The translations under genes and the position numbers were made by a program. A DNA stretch of 64,000 nucleotides from contig ML992507.1 in NCBI GenBank assembly GCA_010093995.1, positions 803,576 to 867,575 on the forward strand. The letters run 5' to 3'. Of this stretch, positions 43,025 to 61,600 are shown one piece after another. Under the pieces are notes generated by a model that saw nothing but the letters and a program-made list of their open reading frames with translations, ran no database searches and was not told the DNA's origin. How positions within the stretch are numbered: the stretch's first letter is position 1; the number at the start of each line of letters is the position of its first letter. Source of the stretch: Elsinoe ampelina (lineage: Eukaryota).

Positions 43025-44558
43025 ATGTCTAACGGACAAGGCCGCAACGAGGGCTCCACGACCCCGGACGAGGAGAATGCAACAGGGAAGGGAGTTGCTC
43101 TAGCTGGAGGATCCCAACCATCGGCAATGCCAAACCGCCCGCGCCCCCATTCTGGGCCCATTCGCTCCGAGGTCGCATTTGTATCAACGGATAGAGGGCA
43201 TTTCGAGAGAGTAGACCAGGCTGCGAAACATTACGTCGACCCCGAGTACGCCGACCTAGACACCGTGGACCGTCGACTCATAGAGTTCGTCGAAATGCTA
43301 GTCCTAATCATGATCGAGCACATCAACTCCAAAGGCAAGGGTCTTAACGGTGGCGTCATTAACAAAGTTACCTTCTGTGAGCTGTAGGAAGAGACTACCG
43401 TCCGCCTGGGTTTGCCGAAGGTGCTCGATTATGAAACAAAGATCGGCAAGCAATCAGGGCATACCTACCGAACAAAGCTCAACCTCGAAGACGATGACGA
43501 CGAGAGTGGTCAGGCTACGGAAGAGGAGCCGGAGGTAGACGAAGATGAGAAGCCGGGCAAGAAATCTAAAACCCCCGATGATGACGACTCCGGCTCTAGC
43601 TCCGACAGCAGTTGCGACGATGTTACCTCTAACGAGGGATACGATCTAGAGAAAGGTCTCCAGCAGGCGCTGGAGGACTTGGTGGGCGATCCCGAGGAGA
43701 CACTCCAAGAACCTACCGAGAAGGAGAAGACCCCAAGCCCACAGGGACAAAGCGTAGGCGTATTTTGACCTCCGAGGAAAAGGAAGAAAAGAGGGCGAAG
43801 AAGGCAGAGAAAGATCATGAGGCGCTCATGAATCTCCTCGCTGGGCAGCGTTTCCTGGCCGAGATCGACAAGATCAATTTCACGCATGGAGCACACAAGA
43901 CTGTCATCCGCGACATTGCCAAGGTCCTAGACCATAGAAGCCAGTCGATCGAGGTCAACGAGCCCCCTGTCGCTGAGGGCCTGCTCCGCGCCATGATGGA
44001 CACGATTAGGGCAGCCACCTCCAAGGATACTCTGCTCTTTATGCTTAGCATGTGCTAGATCCTCGTTCACTTCCCAGAGTACTTGAAAAAACTCGCGACC
44101 GAACTGCAGTTCGGTCTGTCCGTCGAGAACAAGCTCAGGGAGACCCAGCGCCTCTGGAACCTGAACGTCGTCAGTATATCTGTCCTGCTGATCGCACGAT
44201 CGATGACGCCCTGGTCGTCCACGATCATCGCCACCATGTCCAATCGTTCGTGGCAGCAAACGACTTCAAGCTCTCACCTCGATTGATGGTCGTACCGAAA
44301 GTCAGCGCTCTAGACAAGGTCCGGCCATCTCTCTGGGTGGCAACATACTACCAGCAGAAAACCATTGTGGTAGTTCATCCTCACGCATTCACCTTCATCT
44401 ACAATGCTGGTACCACGGCCGGTGCAGGTCGATGTGACATCGGAGAGATACTACCAGCGAAATCTCAATCTGGTAGTGCATCAGCGTTGTGTGATGCACT
44501 AGTGACCATGAGCTATTGGCAGGTTTTGCTGGCTTCCGCACCATGCACCGAGGCATAG
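43025..44558 (+). pseudogene. Disrupted hypothetical gene with an acidic region and a basic KRRR patch
   Basis: Consecutive ORF fragments line up across in-frame TAGs (43385-43387, 44056-44058) and two apparent 1-bp losses (about 43731-43734 and 44164-44165). Confidence 0.55.
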
Positions 44559-44998
44559 CGGATATATTGGGCATCTTGCAGCTGTAGGTAGGGCGCTCGA
44601 ATGTGCGGCGTTGAAATGTCATGACCATTTGGAAGAGTGTGTTGCCTAATGTCCCGTTGGGGTCCTTTGCTGCTAAGGACATGCGGAGCCTTACTCGGTG
44701 GATTAGTCTGAGCTCCCTTTCTTGCTGTGTCATGATTGTTTCCGTCGACAGCAGTGTAGAAGCTGTCTGGGCAGATCATCGGCATGAACGATGTGCTTTT
44801 TCATCTGCGGAGATTTGCTTGCAGCCGGTAGCTCTTACAAAGTCGTCAATTTTGTCACGTACATCGATGTAAGCATCGATGCCTGAATTTGCAGTCTTGT
44901 CGCTTAGTTTTCCCCGTACTTAGCACTCATAGTGTCATCCTATGGCAACGAAAGAAGTCCAGCACAATCAGTGAGATGACCACCGGTCGAGAGGATTA

Positions 44999-47900
44999 CA
45001 GTCGTTTTGAGTTCAACCGAGCCACCCCGGGCTTGGCGTGTTGTACTCCGCGTCGACCTCTCGTTATTAAATTTAGCTAGCTAGAAGTCTATAGAGAATA
45101 CCGATAAATTAAAGCTGAAAAAAGGTGTAATAGTCGCTATACTGCTCTAATTAGGTTGTTACTATTATAGTTAATTATTAGATAGCTAAATTAAAACTAG
45201 TAGATATATAGTTCTTACTTGCTAAAGAGTATACTAATTATGCTATTTATGCTACTACTAAGGTAGCTAGAGCTATAATTCGCTAAATTCGACTATTCCT
45301 TAAGTTCTTTAGTACTTCTTATTCTTCTATTAAAGCTTATATACTACACTCTTATACTTTTACTCCTTTCTTAAAAGATGTAAGTCCTTTATAGCTAAGC
45401 TCTTTCTATACTAACCTATCTAAGGAGGTAATAGCCTACCTAAATAACATCTCTACTACTTATCTTAATAAAGTTTAAGCCTTCTTAAGGGAGATATACA
45501 ATTGCTAAGTATACTTAAGTATAATCTAGTATATAATCTAGCGCTAGTAGTAGTCTCGAAAGGTAACTAAGAAGGTAGCGGCTAAAAGAGATATAATACT
45601 TAGGGCAAATTAGACTCGAAGGTATATACTTTAGCTAGTCGATAGAATTATTTATATTAATAAGTTAGCTTATAATAAGTATATAGTATAGAGGAGATAT
45701 AGGTAGGTACCTATTAGTAAGAAGTATATAGATATCTAGCTAAAGTAGCGTAGTAAGAGGTAGAGCGTATTACTAGCTATTACTATTAATAGCTATCTCT
45801 CTAGTACCTTAATCTACTATAGATTAATTACTAGTAAGATCTTTATTAGCTAGCTAATAGATGTAATAATACTAGAGCTTCTAGCTAGTATAATCTTTAT
45901 TATAGATAATACTTTAATCTACTAGAGCGATAAGGTAAAGAAGCTAGTATAAGAGTATAGAAGTTACCTTAAATACCTACTGCTCTATTTGCTAGATTTT
46001 AATTCTATCGAGTAATTCTTCTTAGTACTAAAGGCATAGGTAAAGTAATACTACGATCTAGTCGCTAGGTACAAGGAATATGCTAATTTCTTAGAGCTAG
46101 CTATCTACTTATATAGCGGACTATACGCTAAGGCGCACTTTAAGAGCTATAGATATAGCATAAGGTTATAGGGGATCTATTTAGTATATAAGAAATTACT
46201 TATGTTAAATAAGTTTAATACTAAGACCTAGTAAAAACTCTTTACTACTACTATAACTACTCTATACTATACGTATACTACTCCGAGTTAGATAAACTAA
46301 GTCTAGTTTAGTAGCCGAACTAGATTAATATCTATCTCGGCCGCCGAGCTAGTTAAATTGTCTATTGCGCTACGTAAATTAGTATCTATATTAGCTACTA
46401 TAAACTAGGCAAAAGTGCCTATTTCGACCGCTAAGATAGTAAGGTATCTAACTTACTTAATTCGATCTAGCTCGTATAACTATCTTAGAGTAATACTAGC
46501 GCTTAAAAGGGCTAATTTAGCTTTAAATCTAGTATAGAAGGCCTTTATTAAAGGCCTAGGTATCTCTCTACCTATCTAAGTATATATCTCTTATACTATC
46601 GAGGTTATAATTCTCCTTCTTTAGCTTAAATTTAACCTAATCTAGCACCTAAATATCTCTTTTAAAGCTTTTCTTTCTCTTTATCTACTTAAAGAATTTA
46701 GTTAAAACTTTATAAGGGTCGGCCTTAGAGGTAATAGGTAAGGATCTTAAGTCGTTTATAGGCCCTAAGCGCTACTATAGCTAGTAAGAAGTAATTAAGT
46801 TTATAATATTAATATAGTTAATAGGTGTTAGAGAAAGTATAAAAGGCGCTAAAGACGCTAAAGGCGTTAGTATTAGTAGTATTAGTAGAGCGCTTTTAAC
46901 ACTTCTTAAGGCCTTTAAGTAATTAAGGCTTAATATAAGGCCTATAGAAGGACGATTAATAGTGGCTTTACTATTGTAAATAGTAGTAGCCTAGGTATAC
47001 TTATTCTCTATTATAATTTAGTAGTACTTACTAGTTAATATACGCTAGTATAACCTCTTATAGTTATAGTAATTACAATTAGTACAAGTCTATACCGACT
47101 CTAATAGAGGCTTCTTATTGCTATTTACGCTCTCGAGTATACTACGTAATTAGCTCGTTACCGAGCCTTAACCTTATAATAGTAGCGCTAGCTATACTAT
47201 CTACGAAGATAGTAGTATTATACTAGCTACTAGAGTCTATACTATCCTTACTAGCGTCGATCTAAGGGAGGATTACTATAAAGGTAGTAGTAGTAGACCT
47301 ATTAAAGAGCTTAGAACTAGTATAGTTAAAGGTAGTTATATAACTCTTAAATTTACTATAGAGTTTATAGCTATTAGTACCTTCTTTATCTCGGTAGTAA
47401 GGCTAAGCCTAAGCTACTAGCAATCCTTAGTAAGCTAATCTTCAAGCTTATTAACTAGCCTCTATATCTTAGCTAGCTCTAATATTACTACTCTAAATAG
47501 CTACTATATACTAAGACGCTTATAGATAGTAGCATAATTAAGTAAAAGTAGCTCAAGTATAGCTTAAGTAATAAGACTACTCTTCTCTACTGCCTAATTA
47601 GCTAGTACTAACTACGATAGATTACTTAGCTAGCTAAACATATGCTTATTATAGTATAGAGTCTTACTTCTAAGCTTTACTACTAGTCTTACCTCTACTA
47701 TCTAACTAAGATAGAGTATATCTAAGTCGCTAGGATCGGTCTCTAGTAACTCCGGCACTTACGACGACTATAGCACCTCTATTACTTATATATCTAGCTC
47801 TTCCTCTAGTGCTATATCTAACTTAATTAACTACCTTAGCTAGTCTAGTATAGGTGTTAGAAATCTTAATTAAAGAGACAGCTACTAAGATCTAGCTTGT

Positions 47901-48409
47901 AAAGGTAGTATAACTTAGTTTATAGCTTACTCTATAAGCCTCTAAAGAGCTAAGTTAGTAGATATAACCTCTAGATAAGGTACTACCTATACTAGCGCTA
48001 GTATATAGCTCTTTAGCTAAATAGTTAAACTATAACAAAGGTTATCTAGTACCTTCTCTAACGAGCTTAAGAAGTGCCTTAAAGAAGAAGAGACTAGTAG
48101 CAACGACGAAGAAGTAGAGAATATTATAATTGTCTCCTATACTACTCTTTAAGGTTTCTTTATATAGCTAGAGCAATAGTTAGTTATAGAAGAAGGACAC
48201 TTACGAGCTATAATATAAAGTAACGTTAGTGTATACTAACTAGTCAATTATACCTTTTTTTTAGCTTTAATTTCATTTAAATAGATAGTGTTATTAAGCT
48301 ATTTAACTCTATATTCTCTCTAGATCTCTAGCTAGCTAATTTTAGTAAGTAGAAGTTAGTAAAGAGTACTACTAAGCCCGGGGTAGCTTAGTTAAACTTA
48401 AAACGACTG
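44999..48409 (+). mobile_element. RIP-degenerated Tc1/mariner (IS630-Tc1, DD34E) DNA transposon, 3411 bp
   Basis: TA on both flanks (44997-44998 and 48410-48411). Left TIR CAGTCGTTTTGAGTTCAACCGAGCCACCCCGGGCTT matches the right TIR in reverse complement, CAGTCGTTTTAAGTTTAACTAAGCTACCCCGGGCTT. The interior is very AT-rich and TpA-rich. Confidence 0.92.
45880..46050 (+). pseudogene. DDE transposase catalytic remnant
   Basis: ata gat aat act tta atc tac reverts to MDNASIH, and tac cta ctg ctc tat ttg cta gat ttt aat tct atc gag taa reverts to YLPPYSPDFNPIEQ, by undoing C>T/G>A changes. D at 45905 and E at 46010 are 35 codons apart (D-x34-E). Confidence 0.88.
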
Positions 48410-48697
48410 TATTATAGCATGTTTTAGCTTACGAATACAGATATAAAATTGTGTATAGTGTTCTTTATAGAGATAGGCCTTATCCGTAACAATCTCTAGC
48501 GTTTCTACTAATATAACATATTTCTAGTTCGAGCTTATATCTAATTAAACTTCTATAAGTGTAATTGTAATTGTAATGACTTACTACACAAGTTGGCATA
48601 GGCTATAGTGTGTTTTGTGTGAAGTTCTTGCAGCATTAAGCACACGGGACGTTTTCGTGGGGCCGACGCACGGATCCCCACAGAATTTGTCTTGCAA

Positions 48698-48704
48698 TAT
48701 ATAA
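48698..48704 (+). promoter_or_regulatory. TATA element upstream of the tRNA-Leu gene
   Basis: TATATAA begins 49 nt upstream of the mature tRNA +1, with a CAA about 30 nt downstream (48728-48730). Function is inferred. Confidence 0.5.
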
Positions 48705-48746
48705 TTTACCAACCAAGGGTCTTTCATCAAAAGCTGTTCCAGCTCC

Positions 48747-48997
48747 GGGAGGGTGAGTAAAATCGTACAACCTCTTCCAGGGCATGAAACTAATAAAACG
48801 CTTCAGATGGCCGAGCGGTTAAGGCGCCACGTGTGCGGATTCTCCAATGCTCATCATCTTCGCCACCACTGACCGGCAGCAGTAAGGTCTAACCTTGACA
48901 TCAATCCGTGGTTCGAAAGAGCGTGGGTTCGATTCGAAAGTCTTCCAATCCATCGAATAATTCCGACAAACTAATACCTGTCCAGCCACTCCTCTCA
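48747..48997 (+). tRNA. tRNA-Leu(AAG) interrupted by three spliceosomal-type introns and one canonical 37/38 intron
   Basis: Exons 48747-48752, 48807-48832, 48883-48887, 48906-48935 and 48986-48997 join to GGGAGGA TG GCC GAGCGGTTAA GGC G CCACG TTAAGGC CGTGG TTCGAAAGAGC GTGGG TTCGATT CCCAC TCCTCTC A. All four stems pair, the variable arm is long as in Leu tRNAs, and the discriminator is A. Confidence 0.88.
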
Positions 48998-49003
48998 ACA
49001 TAC

Positions 49004-49013
49004 TTTTTCTTTT
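49004..49013 (+). terminator. RNA polymerase III oligo-T terminator
   Basis: TTTTTCTTTT starts 7 nt after the discriminator base; there is no T4 run inside the gene. Confidence 0.7.
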
Positions 49014-49200
49014 GGGCTTGCTCTGAATCTTTTGCTCACTTTTGCTACACCAACTTTTGCCTCCTCTGTACAAACTGTCTGGTCTCACTTCCTACGCATT
49101 ATGTGGCTGCAAGAGTATTTGCTTACTGCAACGCAATTTGAGTCTACGTCCTTACAACAGAGGTACTGCAACACATGTCATGGAGCTTGAGTAAAGTCTG

Positions 49201-49302
49201 GCACACGTGGCGCCTTAACAGCTCGGCCATCTGAAGCGTTTTATTAGTTTCATGCCCTGGAAGAGGTTGTACGATTTTACTCACCCTCCCGGAGCTGGAA
49301 CA
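49201..49302 (-). repeat. 102-bp inverted duplicate of 48735-48836 (5' part of the tRNA gene including intron A)
   Basis: The reverse complement matches with one mismatch (gagcGgtt vs gagcTgtt in the D-loop). The copy stops 4 nt into intron B. Confidence 0.95.
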
Positions 49303-50269
49303 CCGAGCGGTCAACAGCCAGGGGTTGCCCCCCGGCTATCTTCCCGCTGGTTCCATATAGTCAGTCCTACAGGCGATCCTACGAAAGATGCTATGTTTCG
49401 ACGGTACCTTAAGCCGCTCTTTGTGACGCCACACGAAGCCTTGGATCGATGAAAAGGGCCCGCAATGTCGAACAGCAAGAAGACAACAGCCACCATCCTT
49501 CTCGAAGGCAAGATGCTTCAGAACTCCGCCGACGCTCTGTGACGGATTTGGGCATACACCCTATAGGACTCATGACTGGCGAGTGCATATCTGGCGAGGC
49601 GAATGGGTCCATACCTAGACAACGTTTGCCATCGAGCTCGGTAATCACCCTACTCAGACACCGGTCGTCGGGGATGTGTGTACGTATTCAGCATGCCCTA
49701 TTTGACTTTTTCGTGCTGATAGGTGGATATCACTGAGCAAGTGACGGTTACTCTATGTCGCGTGTCTGGCTCTCTCGGCACAAAGGCCAAAGCAGACCAT
49801 GACTTCCACCTGTTGAGTTCCATCAACTCTCTTGATTTGCTACATACGGTGACGAGCAAATCTGAATTCCCGTTCTGTTCTACACAGCAAGCCCCCGGAG
49901 CTGCCCATGGGCGTTCCACCGACTTCGAAGAATCAAGGATTGATGCTGTCGCCACCTCCCGATCATAGCTAAGCTCGTACTCTTCGACTATCAGGGCGTG
50001 AAGGATCCTGCCAGCGAGAGCCTCATGTGGTAGGATAGCAGTACCATCGACCGGTAAGGTCACATGAACTGGTATTACGAAGACGTACCCATCACAAAGT
50101 CAGTAGAAAGATACTACCAGAGTGCTCTTCCGCTGATAGTACATCAGCCGAGGGGTCGCTTGAGGTGTCACAGCTTACGTCATGGACCATTGCTGTATAA
50201 GCTATACCTACGAGCGATCTTCACTGGTACCGCCGTATTGCAACACTGGTCGTGTGCTGTCGACCACTT

Positions 50270-51114
50270 CATATGGCGCACATAAGGAACTCGCGGAAAT
50301 CCTTAAAGCTTGCGGCATCAGCTGGTTTGACACCTTTAACAACAATGGCGACCTCCTTTATGCCGGTCAGCGGGCTACTGCCACCCAGCTCCGCCCGCAG
50401 GATATGCCTTTTCCATCGTAGATTGGTGGTAATGCCTGATTTTCTCTCCAAATGGGCCGTCGCACGGGCATCAAGCACCACACACACAGCCTGGTAGTTT
50501 CTGCAGATCCTGCCCTGCCAGCTTTTTCACCTCCGCCGATCTCTCCGCCCACATGGCTTGTGAGCATGGTCAAAAGGAGATCACCTGAAATCACTCCGAG
50601 ACTTGCTCACATTCCTTCTTCAGTGAAGCAAGTATGCGACGTCATTGTCAAGATGCACATGGAGCCGGCATCATATGTAAACAAGACAGCTGCGACCTGG
50701 AGTTTGACAGGATACCAACGCGAGGGTCACCGTGTTACCGATCATTTTGAATCTGGGCTCATTTTTCGCCCGACTTGCGACAAAGAGTATTCATGGTACT
50801 CGGCCCTTTCAAATAATCAGAAGAGAGGTCACTTAGAATTGGGATGTCCCAAGGATCACTGCACGCGATCGTTTGAGACTGAAGCCGAGCTGGAAACACA
50901 ACGTCACCTGTCTCGACACTCGACAGACGGCTGAAAATGCCGCCACTGCGAGCGTTCATTTGACAGTGTCAAAGCTTGCCAGACACATGAGGTCGTCCAT
51001 CTGACTAGGTTCTTGCGTGAGACCTGCGGGACAGTATTCAATGATCATGGCCACTTCAACGATCACAGCCGAAACCACACCAGAGCGAAACCAAATCCCA
51101 GGGACCGTATATGA
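50270..51114 (+). pseudogene. Degenerate gene ending in three C2H2-like zinc fingers; 5' boundary uncertain
   Basis: CPKDHCTRSF..RHLSRH, in-frame TGA at 50932-50934, KCRHCERSF..HEVVH, then FLRETCGTVF..HSRNH with the first Cys replaced by Arg. Confidence 0.6.
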
Positions 51115-51699: not shown

Positions 51700-54600
51700 T
51701 TTCGTTTTCGGAAATTCCAAACGATGCGTGCAATGCAAGAGGCCTCGATTCGTCCGGCACCATTGCAAAGATGGTAGCCAGGCTGGAACGCCATGAGAGT
51801 CAGCAACAAACCTCTATCACCAAGCCCCAAGACAATGTCGATCACGCCTTCAAAGATGCACTCCTCACAGCTCTCGAGGACCTCTCCGTAATTCAAGGTT
51901 TCGACCCAGAACGCTTGCCTGTCGACGAGGAAGAAAACGAATTCTTCCAGAAGATGACGATACATTCTCAAGGTGCCAAAGGCAAATCAACGACAGATAT
52001 TCAACTGGCATCTGCGAAACGCATGGATGCACTAAACGAGCGGTATCGACCAAGGACTATCGCTGGCGCGTTTTGGATAGCGGGCTCGAAAACAGCTCGC
52101 CAAAACTTGGTGCATACTTCGGCTTTACAACCACACGCCAAGCAAATTACCTGCTCTCTCCATCCTGTCCACTGGACCGGATCTTGAGCCGCTGGCGCAA
52201 AGCAAACCACGACATAGGCAAGAGGTTTTCTGGCAAGAAGGACATCCCGAACATCAAATTCCACCACCACTTCGAATCGACGTATGCCAAAGCTCGCACT
52301 GTGAAATGAGAAGCATTAGAGCGCGACCTCGACCTGATCTCGAACAGCTCGAGCGCCAAATCGGTGATAATGGGTTATGCTGTAAAGGCAGCTTGCATGA
52401 TCCTGGACAGCTTTCATTACCTGTATCGCCGACCTGAAGTCCAAGACACGCCATGCGACCCTCGAAGGTATGGCCATTGGCGCTCAGAAGACGTACATCG
52501 AGTCTTCATTCTCCTGCTCAACGCCCGCCACATCATGGGAAAGACGGCGAAGTCCGTCAAAACCCACTTCCTGTGTTGTCGTATTTAAAGGATCACGAAC
52601 TCAAAGACGTCGACTCATCAGCTGCTGCAGCCTCACGTCAATCTGCAAATTCCGGGAGAGGGTATGACTTTGGCCACGCTCTCGAAGAAGCCAAGAAAGC
52701 AATTGCGAGAAGAGAAAGACACCGCGCTGCCGAGACAGGGCCCGAGGAGCTCAATGAGGAACAAATCCAGAAGCTCACAAAAACGACTGCCAAAAACCTT
52801 CTCGCTCAGCAAGCAAAGTATCATATGGGCTCGATAAGTAACGCACTTGGCGACATGACACCTGAAGGACGTGAAATGATTGCCGACGACGTTCGCAGAC
52901 ATGTCATTGTGGTTTATCCTCTACCCAAATCTCGGACCTCGAAGGCGGAGGTTACACTACCCAACGAGCATGAAGATTCTTCTGTGCCAGATCTGGCTTC
53001 TGTAATGAGAGGCGAGGCTACTTTACAGGAAGCGACCTACGATCCACAGTCCGAGGTCAGGACCCGCCAGGACAACTGTGAGGGGCCAGACAGTCGAAAG
53101 GAACTCGATGCGCCGCAGCGCCGAAACCTGCTCGAATGCAACGTTTCACTCACCGAATCCTCGATAATCCTACCACCATTTCAACAGGCTTGCAGCACAT
53201 TCAACATCGAGCTTCCAGAAATTCCATCCGTGCCGGATCACGCTGCCGAGGACGATAAATTCAAAGTATTCCAGCCATATAGCGAGCCGGCTCTATGGGA
53301 CGGCAATGATTATGAGGCAGTCATGCTGCCACCGCAAGCGCCCCCGACAGACCATGAAATTTAGGCCAGCCTGTGAAGCCCGACGACTTTCCAATGACAC
53401 CGAAAGTACCGAGATTTTCAGGTTGTCAGTCACACCTCGAAGTGTACTCAGTTTCCAAGGAACGCCAGTTCTAGTAGGAGTTGTAGTACAATGTCTACCA
53501 GAACTTGGTTTCTAAGTGCAAATAGCAGACTTTCAGGCTTGCCATTCACATGTGGTAGTATTTGCACTAATCTTCCTACCAGACGCTGACAGTTCTACAG
53601 TTCTTGTCTTTCTAAGGTGTGACTGACAACCTGAAAATCTCGGTAACGCGAGTCAAGAAAAAATTACGGGTCAAGCCCCCTCAACTCACTGCCATGAGTG
53701 CCATGCGTGCCTTGGAGGCAAGGAGGCTAGAGGGTGGTATCCTCGCTGACGTGATGGGACTTGGGAAGACTATTACGACGTTACTTCACCTCCTCATGCA
53801 GTCCAAAGAAGCAGAGCGCACGGCAAAGTGTCCCAACACTGGTAGGGACGACTTTGAGGTCTCATTTGTCGCTGTCCCCGCCTCTTCCCTCGGACCATGG
53901 AAGGTTGGCTGGAAACGCTGGTTCCAGGGCAAGCTCGACCTATGGATTTGGTATGGCAGTAAAGACACAGCTGCTGCGGCAGATGTATCCAAGGTCCTTC
54001 CACCGAATGCAGAAGGCCTGAACAAATGGCTTGAAGATCATGTAGACATCAATGATCCCAAAACAGCAAGGAAAGTCATACTCACCTCGACTTCAACCAT
54101 GACGTCTAGATGTCTACAGCAAATTCGTCCAGCTTCAACCCGTGATCAGAACGTCGAGGCGAAAGGCAAAGAACGCCAACGACCCGAGGACTATCCAGAA
54201 GACATGTGTACAGAAGACGCTGCAGACTATGAAGCCATGCAGGACGAGGTTGACAATACTGATGAAGCTGCTTGGAGGATCCTTGTCGACCGTCGCTACT
54301 TCCGCAGAATTGTCGTGGATGAGGCCCATCTCTACAAAGGCCGCCATACACAGATTCACATCTGCATTCGCAAATTGAAATTTGCTGCAACTATTCTGTT
54401 GACTGGAACACCATTTACCCGACGACTGACTGACTTCGCTGGACTATTAGCCCTACTCTGGAACGACACCATAAACGAAGAGTACGACGAGCAGATTCGT
54501 AGCAGGACCGCAAGGTCAGGCATTGATGCCTACAAGAGCATGCGCGACGAAGTCGAAGAATTTGTGGGCTCCACCGATTTCGAGCAGATCTTCGCCGACG

Positions 54601-58697: not shown

Positions 58698-61600
58698 TCA
58701 CGACCCCTTTTCCCCATTCCCGAAATAGCTCGACACCTTCCTTCCCCATCCATCGCTCCTCTTCCTCTCATTCTGCCTTGAAGTCAATTGATCCCGACTA
58801 TCCATTCTCGCCTGCCAGACTGTGCTCCCCGGAGGACCCCTCCCTCCGTCCGTCAGCAAGCCAGTACCGTCCTGCCCATCCACTGATTCGCCCTCGAGAC
58901 TATCACTCCTTCCATGACCCGCCACGATCCCCAAGCCGCTCGCATGATCCAGGTTCTCGCTGATGCTGCGCTTGAGTTGGCCGCTCTCGCGGTGCCGGGC
59001 GAGGCTCCCATCGGGTCGGTGCTGGCCGTGAATGGTGATGAAGGACCCGTCGAGGTTCAAGGGCGGGGAGAGGTTGGGGCTGGTGGCGTTGAGTGTGGGG
59101 CTGAAGGTGTGATATGGTGGGTTCGTGCCCTGGCCTGTGTGACCTGTGTGACCGTTGCGGAGGCTGTTTCCATAAAGGCTGGAGGAGCTGGCGTGGGAGT
59201 GGACTGAGTTGCTGTCTCGTCCTTGCGATGCTGTTGAGTCGCCTGCACCTTTTTGGTGTTCGGTCGGAGGTTGAGGCCCGAATCTGGCCCGAGACGCTGG
59301 TGATGGGCTGCGCGCAGCGGCACCGTTTGGAAGTGGCTTACGTTCTGGTAGGTCGAGAGGGAGTGGTGGGAGGGGTGCATCCCTTGGTGGCGGCGGCGAG
59401 TAGGTGCTTTGAGGCAGAATGGAGGAAGTGTTCACTTCGGCCGCTCCATTCGTGCGTCCCTCGCCAGCTTGGACAGCCTCCTTCTCGTCAGATCCATGGC
59501 CGGCACCTGCCCGATCGTGTTCTGCGAGCCCTCTCAATTGAGCCTCAAGAGCTTCACGTTTGGCCTTCTCCTTAGCAGCTTCCTTCAGTGCTTCCTCCTT
59601 CTCAAGCTCAATCACTTCCAGGGCAGTACCAGACTTGATCGCGGCCAATCTCTCTCGCAAAGCTTTATTCTGATCCCTGAGTTCCTTGTTGTCCTTATTG
59701 GAATGCGTGAGTTGTTCTTCAGAGTTCGCCAGTTGAGTTCGTAGCTCGGCTCGTTCCGTCTCGATAGCGTCGATCCGATGGCCGACGGTCTTGTAGTTCT
59801 TTGTCTCAAGACTGCGCTCCGTGAGCAGATTATTCATGTCCTGTTGAATGTCGTTGACATCTTGCTGGGCAGTACTAAGGTCGTTCTCAAGTTCTTCGTT
59901 CCTGGAGCTCAAGTTGGTGACCTGAGTGGTCAGGTCTGCAACAATGGTGTCACGCTGCTCGATAGTATCTAGCGCTTCTTTCAGTTTTGCATGCAGCACT
60001 TCAGCTTTGGCTGCCGAACATTAGTTTCAGTAAATCATACCCACATGAAGCCACTCACCTTCGTGTCGGAGTACATCAATGACTCTCCCCATGTTCTGAG
60101 CCAGCACCTCCGCACATAACGGATGACCTCTCTCAGCAGCGACCTGGATCGCCAGACCGCGCTTTGGACTACGGTGCGTGACGTTGGCGCCGTAGACACA
60201 AAGAAGCTCCACGCAGCTGCGCTCGCCCTTCCAAGCCGCCATCGTAAGTGCTGTATCACCTTCCGAGGTCTGTGCATTGACATGGGCACCTTTCTCGAGC
60301 AACTTCTGGACCGATACAGAGGACATGTGTGCTGCGGCGTTGATGAGCGGCGTTGCATTGTCGGAACCACCACGAACGTTGACATCGGTTCTGTCGTTCT
60401 CGAGCAGAAGATCGAGTATTGCTGGCTCTGCTATCCTAGTCGCCGCGGTGATTGGATATTTCAGTGTTCCGCCGCCAATATTAGGGTCCGCGCCGTGCTC
60501 GAGTAACATTCGAGCAACATCAGCTCTCGCACTTTCGCAAGCCGCCTGGAGCGCAGATCCACCAGGGAAGCCGATGGTATCTCTAGTAGGTGCGAGCTTA
60601 TTCACATCCGCTCCGGCCTCGACAAGCGAAGTGCATACATCTGTGTGGCCAGCTTTAGCGGCAAGTTGAAGTGCGCACCCACAATTACCCTCAACCAGAG
60701 CTCCCTTTTCCAGTAACGCTCTTACCAGAACATCGTCACCATTCTCAGCTGCGACTGTTATGGCGTCCCGAACATCGAGAGCAGCCTCTGGATCTACCAA
60801 TTTGGCACCGAGTATTTCGCAATGAGCGTCCACCGCATTGGCGTTTGCGCCACAGGTGTTGAGCAGCCAGGTTGCGGTAGCTGATTTCTCAAGCTTGACG
60901 GCCCGGTAGAGGGCTAGATCCCGGACTTCTGGCAGGATTGAGTCGGCTGTGAAATTGTAGAGTTTCTCCAGCAGCTCTTTCTGTTCGTCTGGACCAGTGG
61001 CTGCCAAGAAGAAGACATCGGTCAAGTAGAGGTCATTTCTGCTCTTGTGGTTGGTATCGTTGATGGCATGATCCAGCAGAGCGTTCACGACTGACCAGCT
61101 CCTTTCGTGAGCAGCCGATGAGATCGCATGCCCGACTGTCGGGTTGGTATAGATATGTTCGAAGTCGAGCAATGTCTGAACACTTTCGAGCCGACCGTGG
61201 TAGGCAGCCTCGGACAGAGCTTGCTCCAGGAGGTGCGGGTTTTCTTGCCATTTCTTGATGCCATGTATCAAAATGTCTCGAAACAATTTCGGCTCCGAGA
61301 ACATGGCTGCTAAAGATAGCGGAGCATCACAGGAAGTATAGTCGAAGTTGAAGCGCACATCTCCATTTAGAATCATATTCACAGCCTCGACAGTGCCAGA
61401 TTTGATCGCGGCGTTGATCACCGGTCCATGCTCATTGCTGTAAGCATTGACGTTCGCGCCATGGTCCAGAAGGAGTTTCATGATTGACGAGTGTCCACGG
61501 ACAGAGCAGAGATGCAGAGCCGTCCCGATGCTGCCTTCGCCAGCCTCGATGTCGATACCTGCACGAATGAGGGCTTCGGTAACATCCTGATGTCCATTTA

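Follow-up and report, generated by a model that had tools for sequence, protein, structure and literature searches.

The window analysed here, a 64-kb stretch of the Elsinoe ampelina genome, carries on its plus strand, at 48747–48997, the pieces of a tRNA-Leu(AAG) in their correct order, as read from the sequence and as placed by ARAGORN. The pieces are separated by three inserts, A, B and C, and by a short intron between tRNA positions 37 and 38. A TATA box and a motif of the likely start-site region precede the first piece, and a T-run and a truncated inverted copy follow the last (Table 1).

Table 1. Features at and around the split tRNA-Leu(AAG) locus (positions in the window)
Position	Strand	Feature	Basis
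48698..48704	+	TATATAA box, 49 nt before the mature 5' end	Motif count against ordinary loci
48725..48733	+	CATCAAAAG motif, likely start-site region, at -22	Motif count against ordinary loci
48747..48752	+	Exon 1, tRNA positions 1-6	Sequence, ARAGORN
48753..48806	+	Insert A, 54 nt, GTGAGT..ACTAAT..CAG, between tRNA positions 6/7	Spliceosomal type
48807..48832	+	Exon 2, positions 7-32; D arm with A box, 5' strand of anticodon stem	Sequence, ARAGORN
48833..48882	+	Insert B, 50 nt, GTGCGG..ACTGAC..CAGCAG, between positions 32/33	Spliceosomal type
48883..48887	+	Exon 3a, positions 33-37, including anticodon AAG	ARAGORN
48888..48905	+	Canonical tRNA intron, 18 nt, between positions 37/38	ARAGORN
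48906..48935	+	Exon 3b, positions 38-61; 3' strand of anticodon stem, 11-nt variable arm, T stem and loop with B box	ARAGORN
48936..48985	+	Insert C, 50 nt, GAAAGT..ACTAAT..CAG, between positions 61/62	Spliceosomal type except start
48986..48997	+	Exon 4, positions 62-73, last base discriminator A73	ARAGORN
49004..49013	+	T5-C-T4 run, Pol III terminator-like, 7 nt past the gene	Sequence
49201..49302	-	Inverted truncated copy, 102 nt, 99% identical to 48735-48836	Sequence comparison

Anatomy of the split tRNA-Leu(AAG) locus

The coordinates and end sequences of inserts A, B and C given in a preliminary description of this DNA all proved exact on rechecking. The same description had stated that exact removal of the inserts leaves no leftover bases, which does not hold, as 18 extra bases (48888–48905) remain between positions 37 and 38. 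This 18-nt intron is of the same kind as the canonical eukaryotic introns at 37/38 and is the only interruption of the gene with the character of an endonuclease-dependent intron, whereas A, B and C lie at 6/7, 32/33 and 61/62 and carry other signals. As read from the sequence, position 32 can pair with the third-last base of the 18-nt intron. Both this intron and the 102-nt inverted partial copy downstream had been overlooked, and the GA start of insert C had been left unweighed as a possible defect.

In the raw DNA of the locus, ARAGORN calls no tRNA with its intron search on or off, and Rfam gives no match at the gathering score or at E<=10. Once inserts A, B and C are deleted by coordinates, ARAGORN calls a 79-nt tRNA-Leu(aag), a call that appears in intron mode only, owing to the 18 nt at 37/38. 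The acceptor stem of 7 bp (one G-U), the D stem of 3 bp, the anticodon stem of 5 bp and the T stem of 5 bp in this call reproduce the stems listed in the preliminary description, and the invariants of the D loop and T loop, the long variable arm, A73 and the anticodon AAG are those of a tRNA-Leu(AAG). Of 80 positions compared with a metagenomic fungal tRNA-Leu(AAG) that has no intron, 66 are identical in the spliced tRNA. The expectation that a tRNA finder would recognise a tRNA-Leu(aag) only in the spliced sequence was thus borne out with ARAGORN, and both ARAGORN and the Rfam tRNA model are blind to the raw locus, as had been anticipated for standard tRNA finders. The tandem CAGCAG at the end of insert B (48877–48882) offers an alternative 3' site at 48879; splicing to the first CAG would lengthen the anticodon loop by three bases, and the tRNA that ARAGORN calls from that product is a different and incorrect one.

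The frequency of such an arrangement in the window was assessed in two ways. Intervals of 45–60 nt were scored for GT, YAG and CTRAY near the 3' end, and 245 of 2,045,408 random window intervals pass this test (1.2e-4); inserts A and B both pass it. In a removal scan, candidate introns on both strands (273 and 302) were deleted singly, in pairs and in triples and ARAGORN was run on each product, with the result that 10 of 1,564 combinations yield a tRNA, all 10 being triples at the split tRNA-Leu locus. Given a rate of 1.2e-4 per random interval and not a single tRNA from removals outside the locus, a chance origin of the split tRNA-Leu anatomy is excluded. No other split tRNA was found in the window by the removal scan or by scans for T-loop and D-arm motifs. 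A 'tRNA-Glu' with a 432-nt intron, called by ARAGORN at 43807–44334, lacks a proper T loop and was rejected as spurious.

Inserts A, B and C compared with mRNA introns

Joining reading frames in the window gave a reference set of 13 inferred local mRNA introns, one of which (53552–53600, GT..AG, 49 nt) is confirmed by an RNA joint, 53551>53601, in sequencing run X5. Eleven of the 13 are 46–54 nt long and the other two 68 and 70 nt; their starts are varied GTNNNN sequences, and CTRAY lies mostly 8–12 nt before YAG. The lengths of A, B and C (54, 50 and 50 nt) fall within the typical local range, and their branch motifs, at 13, 10 and 11 nt before CAG, agree with those of the local introns. All three signals of insert A are identical to those of the inferred mRNA intron at 60011–60058 on the minus strand. 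The 5' splice sites are less uniform when set against the fungal GTRNGT, since that of A fits, that of B has GT followed by a weak remainder and that of C lacks GT. The GA start of C is the same, with zero differences, in DNA contig record 3 of run X1, no shift of the borders in the sequence provides C with GT-AG ends that still restore the T arm, and 0 of the 13 local mRNA introns start with GA. According to the available text of PMC7072748, GA-AG introns exist as a rare non-canonical class.

No bulge-helix-bulge, the motif of a 4-bp helix and two 3-nt bulges by which the tRNA endonuclease acts at odd positions, was found at the junctions of A, B and C, where the central helix has 3, 1 and 3 of 4 pairs and the flanking helices are poor; the best score, 3 of 4 pairs, equals the chance expectation. 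The absence of TTTT from the inserts was considered as a sign of Pol III and dropped, since TTTT also occurs in 0 of the 13 local mRNA introns. The preliminary description had credited the inserts with the size and signals of this genome's mRNA introns and had read them as spliceosomal in type. Length, branch motif, branch distance and YAG end uphold this at the sequence level, as does the lack of a bulge-helix-bulge, while the GA start of C departs from it. By every test applied to the sequence except that start, inserts A, B and C are spliceosomal-type introns.

The three inserts show no similarity to one another, and no further copy of any of them was found in the 64-kb window except that of insert A in the inverted duplicate; they therefore seem to be of separate origin. 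A tRNA left unbroken at every exon base by three inserts of seemingly separate origin speaks for selection on its spliced form. A possible source would be introner-like elements, which occur in the same fungal class, the Dothideomycetes, known for recent gain of spliceosomal introns (available text of PMC4457414). Such elements form families of near-identical copies, however, whereas A, B and C are dissimilar and have no other copy within the 64 kb.

No account of spliceosomal introns in tRNA genes emerged from the literature searches, and the available portions of PMC12530127 and PMC8007984 make no mention of them. In the available text of PMC5855946, spliceosomal introns are placed in the Pol III-transcribed U6 of S. 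pombe, whose intron is stated to be removed by the spliceosome, in U1, U2 and U5 of Rhodotorula hasegawae and in ascomycete rRNA genes, and tRNA is not named. The inserts resemble these introns in being short, of the GT..branch..AG pattern and situated within a conserved and structured portion of an abundant non-coding RNA outside the normal output of Pol II, but they differ in that the host is a tRNA, which carries three of them within about 80 nt in addition to its canonical tRNA intron. The entry of introns into snRNAs is ascribed in PMC5855946 to closeness to the spliceosome active site, a reason inapplicable to tRNA.

Flanking signals, surroundings and sequencing runs

The upstream motifs were compared with 27 distinct ordinary fungal tRNA-Leu loci from metagenomes. 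TATA[AT]A occurs at -60 to -25 in 6 of the 27, against 1.5% of the 41-nt stretches of the window, and CATCA at -14 to -7 in 9 of the 27, against a background of 46 of 1,549 stretches (3%). The spacing from TATA to CATCA is 27 nt at the split gene and 27–29 nt in the ordinary loci L020 and L028, and the whole module lies about 15 nt farther from the mature 5' end than in ordinary fungal tRNA-Leu genes. These counts indicate that the upstream module of ordinary tRNA genes is kept by the split gene. The A and B boxes both lie inside the gene, TTTT is absent from it and the T5 run follows downstream. In Pol III type 2 genes the start site is set by the A box, about 10–20 nt away. Insert A displaces the A box by 54 nt, to 61 nt past the mature 5' end, so that a start set by the A box would fall within insert A and exon 1 would be lost; the use of Pol III would thus depend on the upstream TATA box.

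The inverted copy, 364 nt from the gene, reproduces exon 1, insert A and exon 2 in full, together with 12 nt of the leader and 4 nt of insert B. It shows one difference only, at the conserved D-loop GG, its insert A being identical at 54 of 54 positions, and the likeness ends at the borders of the copy. The sequence beyond it was considered as a second, diverged gene and rejected, because 89 of 300 shuffles score equally well. In a plus-strand read-through RNA, the 5' part of the gene and the inverted copy would form a long perfect hairpin. Adjoining the copy at 49303–49311 on the plus strand is a 9-mer equal to the part of the tRNA D arm at 48811–48819, inside a 17-nt stretch loosely like the D arm of tRNA-Leu, which may represent what is left of a further tRNA gene at the breakpoint of the duplication.

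An AT-rich block of about 4 kb (44500–48600), with a GC content of 0.33–0.41 against about 0.52 and many short degenerate repeats, ends about 100 nt upstream of the split gene and resembles a repeat-induced-mutation relic of a transposon. On the other side, the next annotated gene (50182–50931), on the same plus strand, encodes a hypothetical E. ampelina protein of 206 aa (99% identical), for which the protein search gave no relatives besides the E. ampelina entry. No relatives were found for the minus-strand ORF in 49.3–51.4 kb, and between 49.0 and 51.1 kb neither strand shows codon bias, the codon score giving no indication of which strand is coding. For a transporter ORF of the window, the closest matches after E. 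ampelina (100%) are E. fawcettii, Sphaceloma murrayae and E. australis at 90%.

Four of eight sequencing runs, X1, X3, X4 and X5, were compared as contigs, which carry neither strand nor RNA ends. Run X1 is DNA and X3 behaves as DNA, being covered evenly at a depth near 30 and continuous across a known intron; X5 holds RNA, as seen from its GT..AG joint 53551>53601, and X4 is patchy like X5. The depth of X1 fits one full gene copy plus the truncated inverted copy, and in the DNA run the depth of 48843–49023 is not raised by any contig of at least 85% likeness. X4 and X5 have no contig on the gene body (48747–48997), and none of the runs compared has a contig joining across insert A, B or C; neither result has a bearing on expression. 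Nor does any contig of these runs extend from the gene body into the sequence downstream. Contigs of X5 continue through insert A in the inverted copy, but as they carry no strand this has no bearing on splicing.

Three further observations come from these runs. A 255-nt contig of X4 begins at 48998, one base past A73, where RNase Z would cut. As contigs do not show RNA ends and the stop at this base comes from a single study, it is treated as a coincidence and not as evidence. A thinly supported joint of X5 at 49678–49730 (depth 2.3, shorter side 30 nt) skips 51 nt. Its ends read TG..TA, or GT..AT after a shift of one base, and neither strand makes a normal intron of it. Between reading frames of the SNF2 and zinc-finger gene, the depth of X1 rises from ~157 to 1,166–2,230 over 53400–53650, where many variant letters occur, marking a multi-copy repeat.

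In metagenomes, a pattern of exon 2 followed by the start of insert B had 0 matches. YAG followed by the start of exon 2 matched 38 loci, none of them split (0/38), all being ordinary tRNA-Leu genes whose acceptor stem fits the pattern fortuitously. No orthologous or paralogous split locus was found in these scans. Ordinary metagenomic fungal tRNA-Leu(AAG) genes also carry a 37/38 intron.

Readings of the locus and the tRNA gene shortage in Elsinoe

A free-living cell needs a full tRNA set. The available text of PMC8826637 describes a survey of 459 fungal genomes with tRNAscan-SE 2.0 (eukaryotic mode, score >=50), in which the medians are 144 tRNA genes and 44 anticodon types, 30 anticodons are the theoretical minimum for the standard code and 11 of the 459 species, E. 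ampelina being named among them, fall below it. The species total for E. ampelina is 25 tRNA genes and 22 anticodons; the same source gives 25 genes and 19 anticodons for Teratosphaeria nubilosa, 16 and 16 and also 30 and 25 for Cenococcum geophilum, 35 and 29 for Mixia osmundae, 24 and 18 for Sporobolomyces linderae and 74 and 45 for Myriangium duriaei. Its authors suggest tRNA import or super-wobble as the explanation. According to the available text of PMC12941528, the near-telomere-to-telomere genome of E. fawcettii has 43 tRNAs, and that a nearly complete genome yields only 43 implies that assembly gaps are not the cause. Since a full set is needed and the recognisable genes in the published counts are too few, genes invisible to tRNAscan-SE must exist in Elsinoe. 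Hidden split genes, we infer, may explain the low counts, which have other possible causes as well. Split tRNA genes are possibly widespread in the E. ampelina genome, as the preliminary description had suggested, and the published shortage lends this indirect support.

The reading preferred here, if tentatively and at chances judged to fall a little below even, is that the locus is a real nuclear tRNA-Leu(AAG) gene in five pieces, with three spliceosomal-type introns and one ordinary tRNA intron, and that it is a working gene served by a tRNA-type upstream module, by spliceosomal splicing and then by the usual tRNA enzymes. For transcription, the polymerase, spliceosomal removal, the order of the steps and the function of the product, we infer the following course. 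Transcription would start about 15–20 nt upstream of the mature 5' end, driven by the TATA and CATCAAA module, and would end at the T5-C-T4 run, RNA polymerase III being the more likely enzyme. Inserts A, B and C would be removed by the spliceosome, and the cloverleaf would form only after this removal, whereupon RNase P, RNase Z and the tRNA splicing endonuclease with ligase would finish the tRNA.

A working gene is favoured by the intact tRNA obtained after exact removal, by the match to local mRNA introns and by the exclusion of chance, and further by a TATA-to-CATCA spacing as in ordinary genes, the T-run terminator, the tRNA shortage of the species and the precedent of U6. It is weakened by the GA start of insert C, a rare class seen in 0 of 13 local introns, by the weak GTGCGG of insert B, by the displaced A box and by the shortness of exon 1 (6 nt of tRNA) and exon 4 (12 nt). 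The example is also a single one, with 0 of 38 metagenome loci split and no match to the insert-B-junction pattern, and the low tRNA counts, as published, are not tied to this split tRNA-Leu gene and may have other causes.

An unlikely but still serious alternative is a dying or dead copy, that is, a former tRNA-Leu gene, perhaps once spliced, that would now have no tRNA output, with a T-to-A change at the second base of C blocking its removal and leucine decoding resting on other genes. Decay of this kind would account for the GA start of C, confirmed in DNA run X1, and for the weak 5' site of B, and it would suit a locus in rearrangement, with a truncated inverted copy 364 nt off, at the edge of a 4-kb AT-rich block of degraded repeats. 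Yet the changed base in C is the only break: each of the 79 exon positions suits a tRNA, the canonical intron is undamaged, as are the three branch motifs and the 3' sites, and the locus retains its promoter-like and terminator-like signals. That the tRNA has stayed perfect around three unrelated inserts implies selection on its spliced form until very recently, and in a species that, by the published counts, is short of recognisable tRNA genes, split genes are needed somewhere.

It is improbable that the locus is a working gene within a Pol II transcript, in which the TATA box would drive a longer plus-strand RNA past the T-run and, after the spliceosome had acted, RNase P and RNase Z would release the tRNA from the 5' part of that RNA. 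Spliceosomal introns are normal in Pol II transcripts, and the displacement of the A box from the start site by insert A, the consensus TATATAA and the next annotated gene on the same strand, which encodes the orphan hypothetical protein, would all be in keeping with such a transcript. Nevertheless, ordinary Pol III tRNA genes have the same upstream module and T5 run, none of the contigs, strandless as they are, reaches from the gene body into the sequence downstream, and in a read-through RNA the 5' part of the gene would be paired with the inverted copy over 102 nt, which would hinder processing. The release step would resemble that of MALAT1 mascRNA and trypanosome tRNA-Sec, where RNase P and RNase Z cut a longer Pol II RNA to free a piece shaped like a tRNA; to our knowledge, neither has spliceosomal introns inside the tRNA body.

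Removal of the inserts by another route, be it tRNA endonuclease acting at odd positions or self-splicing, and a fortuitous tRNA likeness are together very improbable, as A, B and C lack the 4-bp central helix and flanking helices of a bulge-helix-bulge, 50-nt inserts are far below the size of group I and group II introns, and the interval test and removal scan exclude a fortuitous likeness. The endonuclease route has a parallel in Cyanidioschyzon merolae, where nuclear tRNA genes carry several endonuclease-cut introns at odd positions off 37/38 and are likewise hidden from standard finders (available text of PMC9602550), but those introns have the bulge-helix-bulge motif, which is absent here, where spliceosomal signals are present.

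For the genus as a whole, it can be proposed that most nuclear tRNA genes of Elsinoe are broken by spliceosomal introns, that the spliceosome is obligatory for tRNA maturation and hence for translation, and that this is the cause of the published 25 genes and 22 anticodons of E. ampelina and 43 tRNAs of E. fawcettii; this wider proposal could be correct, although the balance leans against it. The same trait may be present in Teratosphaeria nubilosa, Cenococcum geophilum, Mixia osmundae and Sporobolomyces linderae, all of which have fewer than 30 anticodons in the published counts. If most Elsinoe tRNA genes are split, this trait would be younger than the divergence from Myriangium, for which 74 genes and 45 anticodons are reported.

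In the textbook division of labour, the spliceosome serves mRNAs and a few snRNAs and a protein endonuclease serves tRNAs. A tRNA that needs both the spliceosome and the endonuclease would, if the preferred reading of a working split gene is true, break this division by host, and the gene would form a new class among the known disrupted tRNA genes. The published puzzle of 11 of 459 fungi short of tRNAs (available text of PMC8826637) would then become a testable claim, and the tRNA counts, codon-adaptation indices and annotations of such fungi would be wrong until tRNA finders handle spliceosomal introns.
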